64,000 nucleotides of DNA from Patescibacteria group bacterium (GTDB taxonomy: Bacteria; Patescibacteriota; JABMPQ01; JAQVVF01): the NCBI GenBank assembly GCA_041662665.1, contig JBAZSC010000001.1, positions 449,511 through 513,510 of the forward strand, read 5' to 3'. Numbering within the stretch: position 1 is the first letter of the stretch; the number at the start of each line of letters is the position of its first letter. This document shows positions 28,003-52,835 of the stretch, in pieces. A program made the position numbers and the translations under genes. Below the pieces are notes generated by a model, which saw only the letters and a list, made by a program, of their open reading frames with translations, ran no database searches and had not been told where the DNA came from.

Positions 28003-30858
28003 TTATATTTCGCGTCTTTTCTCCAGATTTCTAAAACTCGCTACATTTTGTTCAAAGAATAAATCAACAACTCCTGTTGGTCCATTTCTATGTTTTTTAA
28101 TATGAATTTCTGCAATATGTTTTCGATCTGTATCTTTTTTATAAACTTCTTCGCGATAAATAAACATAACAACATCAGCATCTTGTTCAATACTACCACT
28201 TTCTCTTAAATCTGACAATTGTGGTATCTGCGGAGTTCTATTTTCTACAGCACGAGACAACTGCGATAATGCCAGTACTGGCACATTGAGTTCGCGAGCA
28301 ATACCTTTTAGCGCTCTAGATATTTCTGAAACCTCTTGAACTCTGCTTTCTGTATTTCTTCCTTCCATCAACTGCAAATAATCAACAACCAAAAAACCTA
28401 ATCCATGTTCAGCATGCAATCTTCTTGCTTTTGTTCTGATTTCCATAATGTTTGAAGAAGGGGAGTCATCAATGAATAATGGCGCTTCTGATAAGACGCC
28501 CATTGCATGTCCAATTCTTGGAAAATCATCATCTTCTTCGCGATCAGAAAGTTTTCCAGTTCTCATTCTCCACAAATCAACATTCGCTTCAGAACATAAT
28601 ATTCTATCAACCAATTGTTCTTTTGACATTTCAAGACTGAATATGCCAACTGGAATCTTTTGCTTGGCAATATTTTTAGCAAAATCAAGAGCAAGAGATG
28701 TATTATGTACCAAAAAATCATTAGCGATAAAATTGTGCGTTGAATTTATTGATAAATCATAAACTTGTTTTTTGCCAATATATTTTATACTTTTTATTTT
28801 ATCCCAAACTATGTCGCTTTCAGCTAATTCTAAAAGCTTTTTTGATTTTAAAACTGTTGCTAATTTTTTAATAGTTTCTCTTCTTGGATTTCGTCTAAAA
28901 GCATGAATATTATGAGTTAACGGCAAATTTAATTTTTTATAAATTTCTTGCCATGTTTTTTTGCCTTTCGCTTTTTTGACTAAATGCCAAACCTCAATTG
29001 GCAGAGTATCATAAGTCCAGCCAGATGTTTTTTTATTTACGAATTTTTCTAATTTTGCAAGCTGTTTTTCTTTGCCAAAAATTCCAATTTCTTTTGCAAA
29101 TCTGCTAATATTTTCTTTATTCCTTATTTCTATTTCAAAAGCAGTTCTTACTTCATTATTATATTTAATTTTTTTAATTCTTAATTTGCTTATTATGCCA
29201 AATCTCAATAATAAATGTTGGATTTGTTTTATTAATTTTTCCGATATTGATGAATAGGATAATCCATAATTATTTTTGCCTAAATAAGCAGAGCCATCAC
29301 AAGAGAATAGGCGATTCAAAAATAATGCAACAAATTCTTTTTTTAAGCTAAATATAATCTCTGGTACGAACTTATTGCCAGCTGATTTACCCATTAGATC
29401 TAATTGTTTTAACCACTTAGTAACAGAATTACTATCTTCCAATTCATTACGCAACTTTTTAATTTGGTTTTGAGTTTTAAGCGGCAATTTTAAATAATCT
29501 AATATACTTTTTAAAGTTTCACATGTTGGCAACCAATGACCATTGATAATAGCTGAAAAACCCGCGTGGCTTAAACCAATACTTTTTTCAATATCCATTT
29601 GTTTTTGATTTGTTTTTATAACAAATGTTTTTAGCAATTCGCCAAACTTTTTTATTTTTTGCTTATCTTTAATTTTCGTACTAGAAACTCTAAAACTTGG
29701 AGTTCTTTTTCCGTTAAAATCAGATAACATAAATTTCACATTAGGAAATTTAGTAACTGAATTTTGAAAATCAGAAATTATCTTTTTATTATTGTTTGTA
29801 AAAATAGGGCAGTGTGTTGTTAAACCACCATCAGCAATAAAATAAGCAAGGCATTTAACTTTATGAGATTCAAGACTTTTTTTACCAAATATCGGAATGA
29901 CTCTAGGACGACCAATCCGCTGACCAGCTTTTAATTTTAATAATGGCTTCCATCCGTCAATTGTCAAAAAAGGATGCGTCAAAGTTGTCTTGATTTTATA
30001 TCCAAGCGCTGTTTCAATTTCATAAACTGGTTTTATATGATCATCCAAATAATTGCTAATTTCAGTTTTCTGTATTTTTAACTCATTATTTAGAGTCAAA
30101 ATATTTCTTAATTTTTCTTTGTATGCCTTTTCAATTGTTAACATACTGCCTGTTTCAGGATCAATTATTTCCGTATCTGCTGTAACGCATTTTCCCATAC
30201 TAGGTCTAGCAGCTAAAATAATCAAATCAGATCGCTGAAATCCAGCCAATACATTATCAAGATCTGGAAAGCCAGTTGGAATTCCACGCAATTTACTGCC
30301 ATCTCGATGCAATTCATCAATTCTCTCAAAAGCATCAGTTAAAACATCTTTAATAACAATAAAATTTTGTTTTAAATATTTTTGAGAAATGCCAAATAAT
30401 TTTTGTTCAGCTTCATCCAATAATTTTTCTATATCTTTTCCTTCTTGATAACCTAATCTTGAAATATCGCCAGCTGCAGTAATCAATTTTCTTAAGGTTG
30501 ATTTTCTCTGAACTATTTTAGCATAATGAATAATATTTCCAGCTGTTGGCACAATGTTTGCAAGAGAAACAAGATAGCTTCTTCCGCCAATTAAATCCAA
30601 ATGTCCTTTGTCAGTTAAAGAGTTCGCCAAACTTACCACATCAATTGGTTCTCTTTTTTCGTACAACTCAAGCATTGAAGAAAAAATCATGCTATTCTTT
30701 TCTTCATAAAAATCTTCAGACCGCAAAAAATCAGAGACTTTGATAATCGCATCTTTATCAATCAAAAGAGAGCCTAAAACAGATTTTTCAGCTTCTTTGT
30801 TTCTTGGTGGCAATTTTTCAACAACGTCGTTTTGGTTTTCCATGATATAACAATACAT
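28003..30858 (-). CDS. dnaB: Replicative DNA helicase DnaB interrupted by an in-frame intein (951-aa precursor, ~455-aa mature helicase)
   Basis: N-domain and linker, then Walker A split as ARPSMGK|C...HN|TSLALDF. C-terminal RecA-like domain carries helicase motifs H2-H4. Confidence 0.9.
28702..30189 (-). mobile_element. DnaB intein, ~496 aa, inserted in the P-loop. Contains a LAGLIDADG homing-endonuclease domain.
   Basis: Starts at Cys1 (CVTADTEI, block A). TLTHPF block B. Two LAGLIDADG motifs ([16 protein letters not shown]). Ends ...FLVHN before Thr+1. The flanks rejoin as GKT. Coordinates ±3 nt. Confidence 0.8.
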
Positions 30859-31074
30859 CTCGTTATGGCTGGTTTCAGAGTCCTCTCTGAAACCACATCA
30901 ACGATTATTAAGTGGTTGCAGAAAGGATTCTGCAACCAGCGATTACGTGAAATTAAATTACAATGTATTCATATCAATATATCATTTTAACATAAAAAAA
31001 CAATCCTCAAAGTTGAGGATAATTTAATAATAAAAAAAGATCCAGAAGGATCTAAATAAAGAACATGATTATGT

Positions 31075-31434
31075 TTAGGCAGAAGGCGCGTGCATTACAA
31101 TGAGGTTGAGAAGCTGAGTCTTATCGAGTCCAAGCCTCGTTGCCCAAGAACCAAATGTGTCATGACGAGAGTCAACATTCATCTGACGACTCAATTCATC
31201 AATAAAGAAATGAAGGCAGGCTCCCATTTGCTTTTCGTCTTTGCATGGGCATACCATTTTTACAATGCGACCACGACGCTTTTCGCGAGTGTAAATAAAA
31301 ATGGAACGGCTTTCTGCACCAGCTTTTGGACAATCCTCAGTAACGTCAACAACCTTTTCAGTCACGCAAGTTACACCTGTGGCAGAATCAGACAAGCCAC
31401 TTTTATACGTAAAAGGATTGAGCACCTTTGCCAT
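31075..31434 (-). CDS. Hypothetical small protein, 119 aa, GC-elevated cassette
   Basis: Strong RBS AAGGAGG 7 nt upstream of the ATG. Preceded by a ~95-bp promoter/5'-UTR block that is duplicated upstream of the next gene. Confidence 0.5.
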   Translation of the reverse strand: MAKVLNPFTYKSGLSDSATGVTCVTEKVVDVTEDCPKAGAESRSIFIYTREKRRGRIVKMVCPCKDEKQMGACLHFFIDELSRQMNVDSRHDTFGSWATRLGLDKTQLLNLIVMHAPSA

Positions 31435-31666
31435 GTCTTTCTCCTCCTTGGCCTGGTTTTCCGGCCATCAAAAAAAGCATTAATCATAATAGCTCTTTTT
31501 TAATAAAATATCAAGATTTTGTTATCTTTATAAGTTCCCTTAAGGTTGAGGATAATTATGGTATAAAAAAATTCTCAAAAAGAGAATCATCAAGGATCTT
31601 CGTAAAAAGCATAAACAAAATCATCTTTGTCATAATCATATTCAGTTTTAAGACGTGCACAAAAAT

Positions 31667-32080
31667 TTACCTTCCAAAGACATCTTCCCAGGGATTTGGA
31701 TCTACATAAAGAGCATAAACATAATCATCTTTGTCATAATCATGGCCAGTTTTAGACGTGCCCAAAAATTTACCATTACAAGTTATTTCATTCCATTTCT
31801 CTAGTGTCACCGTTTGAATAATTATTCCAGTAGTGCCTGGCGAAGCATCAGTTTTTTCTTTGCAATTAAGCTGAGCATCTTTTTTTCTCAGAACAATATA
31901 AACAACACCATCTGATGAAAATTTTTCAATCTTCCTAATATAACCGTCGAGACATAACACTGTGAACTCGAGTTCATTACCCGTAAGATCAGATATCCCA
32001 AGATGTCCAATCTTTTTTGCTAATTTGTTATAAAGAGCAAGCTTTTGACGCATTTCTTGAATTGGCGTCTTCGATCCCAT
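31667..32080 (-). CDS. Hypothetical small protein, 137 aa, GC-elevated cassette
   Basis: Same duplicated upstream block (TTGATA-N17-TATTAT promoter, ggccggaaaaccaggcc hairpin, AAGGAGG). Confidence 0.5.
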   Translation of the reverse strand: MGSKTPIQEMRQKLALYNKLAKKIGHLGISDLTGNELEFTVLCLDGYIRKIEKFSSDGVVYIVLRKKDAQLNCKEKTDASPGTTGIIIQTVTLEKWNEITCNGKFLGTSKTGHDYDKDDYVYALYVDPNPWEDVFGR

Positions 32081-32154
32081 CGCTTCCTCCTTGGCCTGGT
32101 TTTCCGGCCATCAAAAAAGAGCTTTAATAATAATAGCTCTTTTTTAATAAATTA

Positions 32155-33495
32155 TCAAGATCTTGTTATCTTTGCTCCTTTTTCAGTATCTTCAATTTCA
32201 AATCCTGCTTCTATAATTTTGCTTCGCAATTCATCGGCTTTTTTCCAATCCTTATTTTGACGGGCAAATTCACGTTCTTCTACTAATCTGTTTACAAATT
32301 CCGGAACATCAATTTTTTCAATCTTTTTTAAATTTAATCCCAAAACTTTATCAAAATCAATTAGAGTTGCTTTTTTAATTCCATCATCTAAATCAGACTT
32401 TAGCATTTCCCAAACAACAACCAAAGCCTTTGGCATATTTAAATCATCATTTACAGCCTCTAAAAATTTTAGCTCATACTCTTTATCAATTTTACCAATC
32501 TTACTAATTTTACCGATTCTTTCATGAAGTTTATTCAAAGAATTTTGAGCAGATTTCAATCCAGACCAGCTGAAATTTAATTTTGTTCTATAATGCGCTG
32601 TTAAACATAAATATCTAAAGTCAAGAGGGGAGAAGCATTCTTTTTTTAAGTCATTTAGAGTATAAAAATTGTGCAAGCTTTTTGACATTTTTTTGCCATC
32701 TGCTAAAAGATGCTCGCCATGAATCCAATAATTTGCCAAAGGTTTTCCTGTTTTACTTTCTGATTGAGCAATTTCATTTTCGTGATGGGGGAATATTAAA
32801 TCAACGGCACCAGCATGAATATCAATTGTGTCTCCCAAAGCATCTTGAGCCATTGTTGAACATTCAATATGCCAGCCAGGTCTCCCCTTGCCTAATTTTG
32901 TCTCCCAAAAAACTCCGCCATCTTTTTCTGTCCAATTTTTCCATAGCACAAAATCCCGTAAATTATCTTTATCATATTCATCAACATTTACTCTCGCGCC
33001 AATTTTTATTCCTGCTTTATCAAGATGGGAGAGTTTGCCATAATCTTTAAACTTATTAATTTTGAAATAAACAGATCCATCATCTACCTTGTAAGCAAAG
33101 CCTTTGTCTAGTAGTACCTGAATAAAATCAACCATTTTTTCGATATACTTTGTTGCATTTGTAACAACATCAGGTTTGATTATATTTAATTCTTTTAAAT
33201 CTTCAAAAAATTTATTTTCATAATTCTTTGTCAATTTTGCCAATTCATTTTTATTGCCATTAGCTGCTTTAATAGTTTTATCATCAACATCAGTAATATT
33301 CATGACATGTTTTACTTTGAAATTATTATAAAGCAAAACTCTCTTTAGAATGTCTCCTAAAGTATAAGTCCGCAAATTACCAATCTGAGCATAATTATAA
33401 ACAGTCGGCCCGCAAACATATAGACCAACTTGATTATCTTTTAATGGTTTAAATTCTTCAATTTCTCTTGATAATGTATTGTAAATTTTTAGCAT
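32155..33495 (-). CDS. cysS: Cysteinyl-tRNA synthetase
   Basis: Class I motifs CGPTVYNYAQIGN (HIGH-like) and KMSKSLHN. 446 aa. Confidence 0.9.
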   Translation of the reverse strand: MLKIYNTLSREIEEFKPLKDNQVGLYVCGPTVYNYAQIGNLRTYTLGDILKRVLLYNNFKVKHVMNITDVDDKTIKAANGNKNELAKLTKNYENKFFEDLKELNIIKPDVVTNATKYIEKMVDFIQVLLDKGFAYKVDDGSVYFKINKFKDYGKLSHLDKAGIKIGARVNVDEYDKDNLRDFVLWKNWTEKDGGVFWETKLGKGRPGWHIECSTMAQDALGDTIDIHAGAVDLIFPHHENEIAQSESKTGKPLANYWIHGEHLLADGKKMSKSLHNFYTLNDLKKECFSPLDFRYLCLTAHYRTKLNFSWSGLKSAQNSLNKLHERIGKISKIGKIDKEYELKFLEAVNDDLNMPKALVVVWEMLKSDLDDGIKKATLIDFDKVLGLNLKKIEKIDVPEFVNRLVEEREFARQNKDWKKADELRSKIIEAGFEIEDTEKGAKITRS

Positions 33496-33705: not shown

Positions 33706-33733
33706 ACAAAAAAAGAGACCAATAATAGTCTCT
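33706..33733 (-). terminator. Rho-independent terminator of the LOG gene (gagac-caataatag-gtctc plus U7)
   Basis: Stem overlaps the TAG stop and is followed by uuuuuuu on the minus strand. Confidence 0.6.
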
Positions 33734-34262
33734 AAACCTCCAAAAAATGAACGATTTCTGCCTCAATTAATTCAAAAGGACGTCCTTTCTTGATCTTTAA
33801 AATCATTCCAACATCAATTCCAGAAAATTCAGAAGAAGTCAAAAGCGCCAAGAAATGCGGATTAAAATTTCCGATCATGACAAGCTTTTTCTTTGTCTTC
33901 AATCTGCCAACAAGTTCATCATATGTTCCAATTCCGCCCTCAAAAGCAATCACCAAATCTGGCGCATCAATCAAAAGTTGCCGTCTGATTGCAGGTCCGA
34001 AATCAATTTCTTCAAAACCAGGAAATTGAAGTTTTAACAAGCTTGTATTGATTGAGCCAGGCGTTGTGATCTTTTTTTCAAGCAATGACTGATAAACGAT
34101 TCCAGTTCCGCCTCCAATGAAGCAAGCCTGCATAATACCCGAGTTGATACCTCCATGAACTACTAAATGTCCTAATTGAATCAATCTTTGCGTAATTCTT
34201 TCCGCCAATTCTTTGTCCAAACCACCGCACACTGCTCCGCCAATGATTGCGATTCTGGCCAT
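33732..34262 (-). CDS. LOG-family (TIGR00730) nucleotide phosphoribohydrolase
   Basis: MARIAIIGGA...GGPGIMEA-like GxGxxG and GGIGTYDEL motifs. Start at ATG after AAGGAGGG (residue 17 of the track ORF). Confidence 0.7.
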   Translation of the reverse strand: MARIAIIGGAVCGGLDKELAERITQRLIQLGHLVVHGGINSGIMQACFIGGGTGIVYQSLLEKKITTPGSINTSLLKLQFPGFEEIDFGPAIRRQLLIDAPDLVIAFEGGIGTYDELVGRLKTKKKLVMIGNFNPHFLALLTSSEFSGIDVGMILKIKKGRPFELIEAEIVHFLEV

Positions 34263-34284
34263 CTCTCTCCCTCCTTCTTTGTGG

Positions 34285-34752
34285 CTAGGAAAACAGAAGA
34301 CTAAGCACAATGAAGATAATTATTGTTACGAGCGCAATAATCCAATGAAATGACGTTTCAAGATAAATAAAGAATAGATCATACTTCGTCAGTGGTGTCG
34401 TTTTCTTAGCTGCAAGGCAAAGTATCTGGAGTCCAAACATCAACGCAAAAAATACAATGATTAGGGTATTCAGCCAAGATGGTGAATTATAAAAATATGT
34501 TGCGGTCCGAGAGTGAAAAGAGACAGCTACTGTACAAACGCAAGAAATAAGAAATGCCATGGCAAGCTTGATATTAGTCGGAGAATGTGTTTCATAAAGC
34601 TGATCTACGCTTATTCTCTTACCAGCATTATAGTCAGCGAGAGCAGTCATCAGAGGTCTAACTTTTGATGCAATATATTTGTAGGTTAGAACAATTGCAA
34701 CTGTCATAGCAAGAAAAATAATAACTTCAAAAACAATTGTTCCTGTGCTCAT
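34285..34752 (-). CDS. Hypothetical 4-TM membrane protein
   Basis: Hydrophobic 155-aa ORF with RBS gggagga. GC-elevated. Confidence 0.45.
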   Translation of the reverse strand: MSTGTIVFEVIIFLAMTVAIVLTYKYIASKVRPLMTALADYNAGKRISVDQLYETHSPTNIKLAMAFLISCVCTVAVSFHSRTATYFYNSPSWLNTLIIVFFALMFGLQILCLAAKKTTPLTKYDLFFIYLETSFHWIIALVTIIIFIVLSLLFS

Positions 34753-52517: not shown

Positions 52518-52835
52518 ATGTTTAATAACGATAACGGCGCTCCAAGACAAATGGTACAAGGTAACTGGACATGTTCAGATTGTGGTAAAGAAATCACAGA
52601 ATTACCTTTTCAACCATCAGGAGACAGACCAGTACATTGCAAAGAATGTTGGGCAAAAAAAAGATCAGAAAATAGATCAAGTTTTCAAGACAGAGCACCA
52701 AGACAAATGGTGCAAGGAAATTGGGCTTGCTCAGAATGTGGCAAACCAATAACAGAATTACCTTTTGAACCAAAAGGTGATCGCCCAGTATTATGCAAAG
52801 ATTGCTGGAGAGCAAAAAGACCAGCAAGATTCTAA
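52518..52835 (+). CDS. Tandem-duplicated CxxC-x17-CxxC zinc-ribbon protein
   Basis: Two ~50-aa repeats APRQMVQGNW.CS.CGK.ITELPF.P.GDRPV.CK.CW. Own hairpin leader. Terminator gaccgc-ugua-gcgguuuuauu at ~52900-52925. Confidence 0.55.
   Translation: MFNNDNGAPRQMVQGNWTCSDCGKEITELPFQPSGDRPVHCKECWAKKRSENRSSFQDRAPRQMVQGNWACSECGKPITELPFEPKGDRPVLCKDCWRAKRPARF

Follow-up and report, generated by a model that had tools for sequence, protein, structure and literature searches.

How can two genes whose products have nothing in common come to stand behind nearly the same 91 nt of DNA? The question is raised by a 64-kb stretch (the window) of a 645-kb contig from a Patescibacteria metagenome-assembled genome, in which two small open reading frames (ORFs) on the minus strand, coding for proteins of 137 aa (ORF137) and 119 aa (ORF119), lie between cysS and dnaB, each directly preceded by one copy of a direct repeat. 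An earlier note on this DNA, made from its letters alone, described the repeat as a duplicated promoter and 5' untranslated region, and the two genes as cassettes that might be mobile. We find the repeat better described as a duplicated scaffold of cysS stop codon, terminator and leader, and consider it likely, though well short of certain, that a segment of the cysS-dnaB spacer was duplicated in tandem and left the repeat as its scar, the interior of the distal copy being later replaced by ORF119.

The two copies of the ~91-nt repeat, B (32085-32173) and A (31442-31529), align over 89 columns with 94.4% identity and one 1-nt indel, and are 100% identical over 34 nt (31442-31475 and 32085-32118). 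A 28-nt core, TCCTCCTTGGCCTGGTTTTCCGGCCATC, occurs exactly twice in the window, even when up to three mismatches are allowed, against an expectation of zero from 100 shuffled sequences. As had been read from the sequence before, each copy is directly upstream of a minus-strand ORF that starts with ATG: the 3' ends of the copies lie 5-8 nt before the start codons of ORF137 (copy B) and ORF119 (copy A). From cysS towards dnaB, the locus comprises the following features.

32155-33495, minus strand: cysS, cysteine-tRNA ligase, 446 aa (Pfam tRNA-synt_1e, E=1.5e-107; from the ORF list)
32085-32173, minus strand: repeat copy B, in the order cysS end, hairpin T1, GC hairpin, Shine-Dalgarno (SD) sequence
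31667-32080, minus strand: ORF137, a 137-aa small protein with one true homolog, P0013
31594-31774, minus strand: 104-bp tandem duplication at the 3' end of ORF137, its downstream copy out of frame and decayed
31565-31587, minus strand: T2, intrinsic terminator of ORF137, ATTCTC-TTTTT-GAGAAT followed by T6 (read by eye and from folding)
31537-31557, minus strand: T3', a truncated copy of the ancestral cysS-dnaB spacer terminator (AATTATCCTCAACCTTAAGGG), with a decayed 3' arm and without a T-run
31530-31536, minus strand: new junction AACTTAT, linking T3' to the relic of the cysS 3' end
31442-31529, minus strand: repeat copy A, with T1' (31501-31470), TTGATA (31514-31509), TATTAT (31491-31486), GC hairpin (31466-31450) and SD (31449-31443)
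31075-31434, minus strand: ORF119, 119 aa, 44.4% GC, of an 11-member family
31031-31053, minus strand: T2*, terminator of ORF119, AGATCC-TTCT-GGATCT followed by a T-run
30993-31020, minus strand: T3, the intact ancestral terminator ATCCTCAACTTTGAGGAT followed by TGT7 (stem 31020-31003 plus T-run)
30971-30992, minus strand: conserved block ATGTTAAAATGATATATTGATAT with an extended -10-like TGATATATT (30984-30976), present in 4 of 4 genomes
28003-30843, minus strand: dnaB, with an intein; the start (MENQND, at 30843) was set after its relatives

Copy B begins inside cysS, as the overlap noticed earlier had indicated: from 32173 on, its 5' end (AAAGATAACAAGATCTTGA) is the final 19 nt of the gene, with the last five codons and the stop (K-I-T-R-S-*, stop at 32157-32155). 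A -35-like TTGATA (32158-32153) overlaps this stop, and a -10-like TATTAT (32135-32130) falls within the loop of hairpin T1 (32145-32113, A6-GAGCT/AGCTC-T6). The GC hairpin GGCCGGAAAACCAGGCC (32109-32093) directly abuts the SD sequence AAGGAGG (32092-32086), which is followed by the ATG. Copy A repeats this order behind a non-coding relic of the cysS end (AAAGATAACAAAATCTTGA). The relic comprises the same 19 nt and reads K-I-T-K-S-stop, as cysS does in the relative L077; it retains the Lys codon AAA found there, where cysS of the window now has AGA.

The first of the two hairpins had been called perfect in both copies. This is true of T1 in copy B; in copy A the stem of T1' is weakened by a 1-nt deletion in its 3' arm. 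The second, GGCC...GGCC, is identical in the two copies together with the abutting AAGGAGG, as was claimed. Both leaders fold better than shuffled sequences (z = -4.1 and -3.4). The arrangement TTGATA-N17-TATTAT is likewise present in both copies, with 10 of 12 consensus matches, so that each unit has a candidate sigma-70 promoter. If this promoter is used, the leader would be ~45 nt long, with ~15 nt between the predicted transcription start site and the GC hairpin, which may serve to protect the mRNA 5' end or to keep the SD exposed.

A further ATG lies inside the GATGGCC of each repeat copy (32111-32109 and 31468-31466) and opens a short out-of-frame ORF of 27 codons in one copy and 21 in the other. 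Its first nine codons, MAGKPGQGG, are identical in both, and it extends over hairpin and SD and beyond the main start codon. The ATG follows a U-rich unstructured stretch and is missing in L077. Given the mostly SD-less starts of this genome, it could be a translated upstream ORF.

Homology between the two units is not confined to their 5' ends. The 3' flanks of ORF137 and ORF119 are homologous and collinear: after each T-run comes AT-N5-AATTATCCTCAAC-YTT-RAGG, with 27 of 34 positions matching and a 13-nt exact core, AATTATCCTCAAC, in the part of the flank that we named T3. Since both flanks are homologous, the locus consists of two units, each made of cysS 3' relic, T1, hairpin and SD, then ORF and terminator, then T3, arranged head to tail and unrelated in their interiors alone. 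Two consensus terminators stand downstream of ORF119. The adjoining ATGTTAAAATGATATATTGATAT block is probably the dnaB promoter, and T3 together with this block is 92-96% identical across all four related genomes. These homologous 3' flanks had escaped the first reading of the sequence, as had the cysS stop relic in the distal copy and the 104-bp tandem duplication in ORF137.

We wondered what the spacer looks like where the second unit is missing, and compared it in three genus-level relatives (L077, L084 and L085). Their CysS proteins are 74-76% identical to that of the window, and those of L077 and L084 are 90% identical to each other; the best CysS match in the GTDB representative set reaches 62%. 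The four spacers are arranged as follows.

L084: cysS, 97 bp with only T3 and the conserved TGATATATT block, dnaB
L085: cysS (C-terminally extended), T1, T3, dnaB, with no ORF
L077: cysS, T1, AGGAGGA, the ORF137 homolog P0013, T2, T3, dnaB
window: the L077 layout plus the GC hairpin in the leader, then a second unit with ORF119

cysS thus lies directly beside dnaB in two of the three genus-level relatives. It is also directly followed by dnaB, and then by (ybaB and) recR, in at least 12 distant Patescibacteria, where neither small ORF is found. Both ORFs are therefore lineage-specific additions to a conserved junction, and the cysS-dnaB spacer is a hot spot for the gain and loss of small genes in this genus. 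None of the three relatives has the second unit, a GC hairpin in the leader, the DnaB intein or the 88-nt hairpin of the dnaB leader, all of which are present in the window.

The comparison also bears on the nature of the repeat. Its first 60 nt, the cysS stop region and T1, are found at the same place in relatives, including L085, which has no cassette; the repeat is not a free-standing or mobile promoter module. Three genomes agree in the T1 stem and differ in its loop, as one would expect if the hairpin is functional; it is probably the terminator of cysS. Two further ideas on the locus were dropped: a breakpoint hot spot at the K-I codons of cysS, because point mutations explain the L084 difference, and a derivation of the GC hairpin from the dnaB start region (ATGG..AAAACCA), because a match this short could be due to chance.

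ORF137 has one true homolog, P0013 of L077, at 40-43% identity (E 2.8e-15) and at the same cysS-dnaB locus, so that it is not a recent arrival in the window genome. A second HMMER match, P0014, was judged spurious, as only a 34-residue stretch of this 439-aa tandem-repeat protein aligned. The AGGAGGA before the L077 homolog is kept despite protein identity of only ~40-43%, which argues for a functional SD, and the T2 terminator also follows the homolog. The C-terminus of ORF137 has been rewritten by the 104-bp tandem duplication, whose downstream copy has decayed and lies out of frame. The gene has a GC content of 35.7%, only modestly raised (by 4-5 points) relative to cysS (30.8%) and the window (32.1%). 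It had no match in Pfam, PHROGs or PADLOC and none among phages, and its AlphaFold2 (AF2) model, with a mean predicted local distance difference test score (pLDDT) of 45, was unusable.

ORF119 and ORF137 are unrelated proteins (BLASTP E=4.2) and their coding regions are without residual DNA similarity, in agreement with the earlier claim that they resemble neither each other nor known families. The elevated GC content reported for both is clear for ORF119 only (44.4%, against the same cysS and window values). Its correct start is the ATG behind the perfect SD; the NCBI gene model is shorter by 13 codons. Throughout the 11-member family, the motifs EKVVDVT..C, GRI and a C-terminal HAP are strongly conserved. 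In low-GC Patescibacteria the members are solitary GC-rich genes, 10-18 GC points over their flanks (gene versus flank: 56 vs 38, 54 vs 39, 46 vs 36 and 44 vs 32), and have their own promoter-like site, 5' hairpin, AAGGAGGA ~7-8 nt before ATGGCA, and T-run terminator. No two non-redundant loci have a neighbour in common. On two ~60%-GC contigs (L006 and L083), the homolog has the GC content of its contig, in arrays that carry integrase, DNA methyltransferases and endolysin (PHROGs).

Searches of Pfam and PHROGs with ORF119 returned no match, PADLOC gave two insignificant ones (E 0.016-0.018), no sequence-profile match of the family was found in the PDB, and IMG/VR and INPHARED phages held no relatives. 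Structure prediction, which had been suggested as a check, gave a confident AF2 model (pLDDT 90.8) with a five-stranded sheet followed by three helices, for which Foldseek found no match in PDB or BFVD at E<0.1. From the composition and contexts of the family, a phage origin is the best-supported reading and is probable, and the data support ORF119 as a horizontally mobile, GC-rich and self-contained gene. The notion of a mobile cassette thus survives for ORF119 as a gene that moves horizontally; a dedicated mobility mechanism is unsupported, as no recombinase among the ten genes of 26.9-37.5 kb, no attC-like cores and, in the sequence searched, no other copies of the repeat were found.

In L006 (1030-1932) the homolog stands immediately downstream of a DNA methyltransferase gene, and in L083 (706-3493) ~1.9 kb upstream of one (PHROG 799 and 111), both genes belonging in each case to one small-ORF array. 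This proximity hints at a restriction-modification or anti-restriction role for the family. We also considered ORF119 and ORF137 as a toxin-antitoxin or defence pair, and rejected this: PADLOC and Pfam give no significant match, terminators lie between the two genes, and each occurs alone in other genomes.

The history that we favour would start from a cysS ending in T1, a short strong-SD leader driving ORF137, and then T2, T3 and the dnaB promoter. A segment of ~0.55-0.64 kb, from the last 19 nt of cysS to the T3 stem, would have been duplicated head to tail in the window lineage, leaving the illegitimate junction GGG/AACTTAT/AAAGATAAC. ORF119 would then have replaced what lay inside the distal copy, between the 3' edge of the SD and a point ~24 nt beyond the stop codon; this step could have used the short matches offered by AAGGAGGA and by the terminator T-run of the incoming ORF119 unit. 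Equivalently, a sister strain could have undergone the allelic replacement first, with unequal crossover as the second step. Either route would yield two terminator-insulated monocistronic units with the same leader.

Several observations fit this history. What a tandem duplication leaves behind is seen in the homology at both unit ends and in the single or empty state of the relatives; homologous interiors are not found, and because ORF137 and ORF119 are unrelated, a replacement step must be added to the duplication. AAGGAGGA marks the exact point at which the two window copies cease to be identical, and the ORF119 homologs have AAGGAGGA and T-run terminators of their own, so that the swap junctions are compatible with recombination at these places; both the use of this microhomology and the order of events are what we infer from the present arrangement. 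The copies diverge by 6.5%, far less than cysS of the window and cysS of L077 do (~23%), which dates the duplication after the split from L077. All of this is ordinary genome micro-evolution, and no new mobile element or mechanism is required.

Several points weigh against this history. No genome was found with ORF119 alone at the locus or with two ORF137 copies, so that the intermediate state is hypothetical. The differences between the copies are unevenly spread, all six falling within the first 57 nt and leaving the last 34 nt untouched (p of ~0.06 under uniformity), which may reflect selection or gene conversion on the hairpin-SD part and not a single clean duplication. L077 is without the GC hairpin, and the homology of the 3' flanks is short. 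Promoter-like sites, finally, are not in excess in this AT-rich region (7, against 5.3 +/- 2.7 in shuffles).

The uneven differences also speak for another explanation, in which the leader is a cis-regulatory RNA that was kept twice to co-regulate both genes, the duplication being secondary; a terminator/antiterminator, a protein- or ligand-binding hairpin and the short upstream ORF at GATGGCC are candidates. The 34 nt over GC hairpin and SD are 100% identical while the remainder has diverged by ~10%, the leaders fold better than chance, and leaders of similar build, with a hairpin ahead of the SD, are found before other strong-SD genes of the window and before ORF119 homologs elsewhere. We nevertheless think this unlikely, if worth keeping in mind. 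The repeat has no Rfam family match even at E<=1, except a meaningless long non-coding RNA at 13 bits (a search of the window at gathering level returned one tRNA only and no rRNA), and the L077 homolog of ORF137 keeps the SD without the GC hairpin. There are only two copies, with no covariation to test, and the duplicated cysS relic and duplicated T3 are left unexplained.

Could the two genes have arrived separately, as self-contained foreign genes inserted at one hot spot, with flanks made alike by gene conversion? ORF119-family genes elsewhere are complete units of promoter, hairpin, SD, ORF and terminator, the spacer is prone to gain and loss, and an identical 34-nt core would suit recent conversion. 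This account is improbable: it requires separate copying of the 91-nt 5' block, useless cysS relic included, and of the 34-nt 3' block, and is thus less parsimonious, while AACTTAT joins T3' straight to the cysS relic as a head-to-tail duplication predicts.

Of about the same low probability is a broader proposal, namely that the spacer downstream of cysS is a recombinase-free gene-capture slot, where foreign ORFs are swapped or stacked into a conserved expression scaffold. The scaffold would consist of terminator-embedded promoter, hairpin and perfect SD on one side and T-run and T3 on the other, recombination would take place at AAGGAGGA and the terminator T-run, and the incoming genes would be supplied by DNA uptake, on which Patescibacteria rely. 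If this were true, the scattered strong-SD, GC-rich small ORFans would be its visible product, perhaps derived from phages of higher-GC hosts and enjoying privileged SD-dependent translation.

Very unlikely is a system of site-specific mobile cassettes, in which the 91-nt repeats would act as integron attC-like sites, or as attL/attR of a tiny integrative element that inserts at the 3' end of cysS and restores it, and both ORFs would be captured cassettes moved by a recombinase supplied in trans. It would account for unrelated ORFs separated by conserved ~90-nt repeats with imperfect palindromes, for a repeat that includes the cysS 3' end, as with elements that integrate into the 3' ends of genes, and for a locus that varies between close relatives. 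Against it, no recombinase is encoded among the ten genes between 26.9 and 37.5 kb, and reading of either strand revealed no GTTRRRY or RYYYAAC core at the repeat ends. In L077, where T1 and T3 occur once each, no repeats flank the ORF137 homolog, and the first 60 nt of the repeat occur in L085 without any cassette. No further repeat was found in searches of the window and external collections: IMG/VR held none, and the JGI metagenome contigs gave no match for a 24-nt hairpin-SD core or for a 28-nt T3/dnaB-promoter pattern, both weak negatives because this collection evidently lacks even the L077 contig.

An assembly artefact or chimeric contig, from a collapsed or misjoined repeat, can be set aside: the repeat does confuse assemblers, as Logan contig L008 stops within the identical core in the way expected of a de Bruijn assembler at a true repeat, but the copies differ at six positions and so can be told apart, and an independent ENA assembly (contig L007) is 100% identical over 2503 bp spanning the cysS end, ORF137, ORF119 and the dnaB start.

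The strong SD sequences of the two units set them apart from most genes around them. Across 66 window genes, the pairing energy between SD and anti-SD is bimodal: eight genes, with a near-perfect AGGAGG, are at -10 kcal/mol or below, one is at -7.4 and 57, with practically no SD, are above -4.1, which bears out, within the window, the description of an otherwise weak-SD genome. The eight are ORF137, ORF119, a SLOG-family gene at 33732 and the genes at 34285, 53018, 56365, 56821 and 57294. Strong-SD genes are shorter (median 127 vs 257 aa, p=0.001) and GC-richer (37.5 vs 32.3%, p=2e-4), their upstream regions are more structured (p=0.01), and most have no Pfam match. The arrangement of hairpin, AGGAGG, small ORF and terminator, said to recur further along the window, does so at 53.0, 56.4, 56.8, 57.3 and 60.8 kb; it is the architecture that these genes have in common, not the sequence. 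Many SD-less genes have an A-rich leader such as AAAACCAAAACATA ahead of the ATG. The anti-SD motif has been reported missing in about half of Parcubacteria (PMC9297842).

Between 56365 and 57698 lie three tandem paralogous small ORFs (116, 105 and 134 aa) with a common motif, SCIYRL, and no Pfam family; each has its own -10-like box, 5' hairpin, AGGAGG and near-identical terminator, TTAGTGAGTTACCCTCAC-T8. A 105-aa ORF at 52518-52835 is composed of two treble-clef zinc-finger modules (PF23477, E 4.8e-27) and has a promoter-like box and 5' hairpin upstream, but no SD.

The chromosomal neighbours of the two small ORFs are, by Pfam, cysS, dnaB, ybaB and recR, and the ten genes from 26.9 to 37.5 kb encode RecR, YbaB, DnaB, ORF119, ORF137, CysS, a SLOG-family protein, a membrane protein, an FG-GAP protein and an AAA ATPase. 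Upstream of cysS (33732-34752), a strong-SD gene pair with GC content up to 46% encodes the SLOG/LOG-like protein together with a membrane protein of 155 aa. Of the relatives, L085 has the SLOG gene too, L077 and L084 lack it, and a 116-aa minus-strand ORF occupies this interval in three of three relatives; the interval is a further variable islet beside cysS. On the other side, the window DnaB has 951 aa (28003-30858) against 450 aa in close relatives, whose proteins align to its residues 1-227 and 720-951 only, which indicates an intein of about 490 aa. The dnaB leader (30860-30948, minus strand, between the T3/dnaB-promoter block and the dnaB ATG) contains a near-perfect long hairpin of ~88 nt, with a minimum free energy of -46 kcal/mol as RNA (z=-6.6) and only weak, miRNA-precursor-like Rfam matches. 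L084 and L085 have none, and L077 has at the same place a different palindromic insert of ~82 nt (GTCATTCTGAGG...). These palindromes look like independent insertions resembling miniature inverted-repeat transposable elements or repetitive extragenic palindromes, or like a regulatory leader.

In four related genomes the cysS-dnaB junction is found empty, with one gene and with two genes, and it offers a cleanly resolved case of gene gain in an ultra-small Patescibacteria genome, in which the newest gene rides on the duplicated terminator, leader and ribosome-binding scaffold of its neighbour. The ORF119 family adds a confidently folded, phage-linked protein without a match among solved (PDB) or predicted viral (BFVD) structures, and the split into two SD classes marks small GC-rich orphan genes and bears on how translation starts in Parcubacteria.

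Among known systems, integron cassettes and their attC arrays also alternate unrelated small ORFs with conserved ~90-nt repeats that contain imperfect inverted repeats. Here, however, there are two units only, neither an integrase (26.9-37.5 kb) nor attC cores, and the repeat, which consists of the stop codon and terminator of a housekeeping gene, precedes each ORF; its palindromes are a terminator-like, A/T-flanked stem and a GGCC stem. As for integrative elements that target gene 3' ends, the repeats do contain the cysS 3' end; the bracketed ORF137, however, has a homolog at the same locus in L077, where only one copy of the repeat is present, and no integrase was seen close by. Stem-loops at the 5' ends of mRNAs act as stabilisers together with a strong SD in the ompA leader of E. 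coli and the aprE and ermC leaders of B. subtilis. The short GC hairpin immediately before a perfect AAGGAGG resembles these, as does the same layout in other strong-SD genes of the window; if the TTGATA/TATTAT promoter is used, the predicted hairpin would lie ~15 nt from the predicted transcription start site, further than in the classical stabilisers.

Phage morons are autonomous units of promoter, gene and terminator with deviant composition, inserted between conserved neighbours. Like them, ORF119 is one small gene that has terminators of its own and a candidate promoter; its GC content exceeds that of the surroundings by 12 points, it is placed between genes that are adjacent in relatives, and its family is also found in prophage-like arrays. 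Unlike a moron, it stands in a bacterial chromosome between housekeeping genes, the prophage-like context being that of distant homologs only (L006 and L083), and its leader appears borrowed from the neighbouring resident cassette and not brought along. The locus departs from a plain tandem segmental duplication in that the unit interiors are unrelated genes; it resembles one in its head-to-tail units, homologous 5' and 3' ends and one novel junction, with an extra tandem duplication of 104 bp close by.

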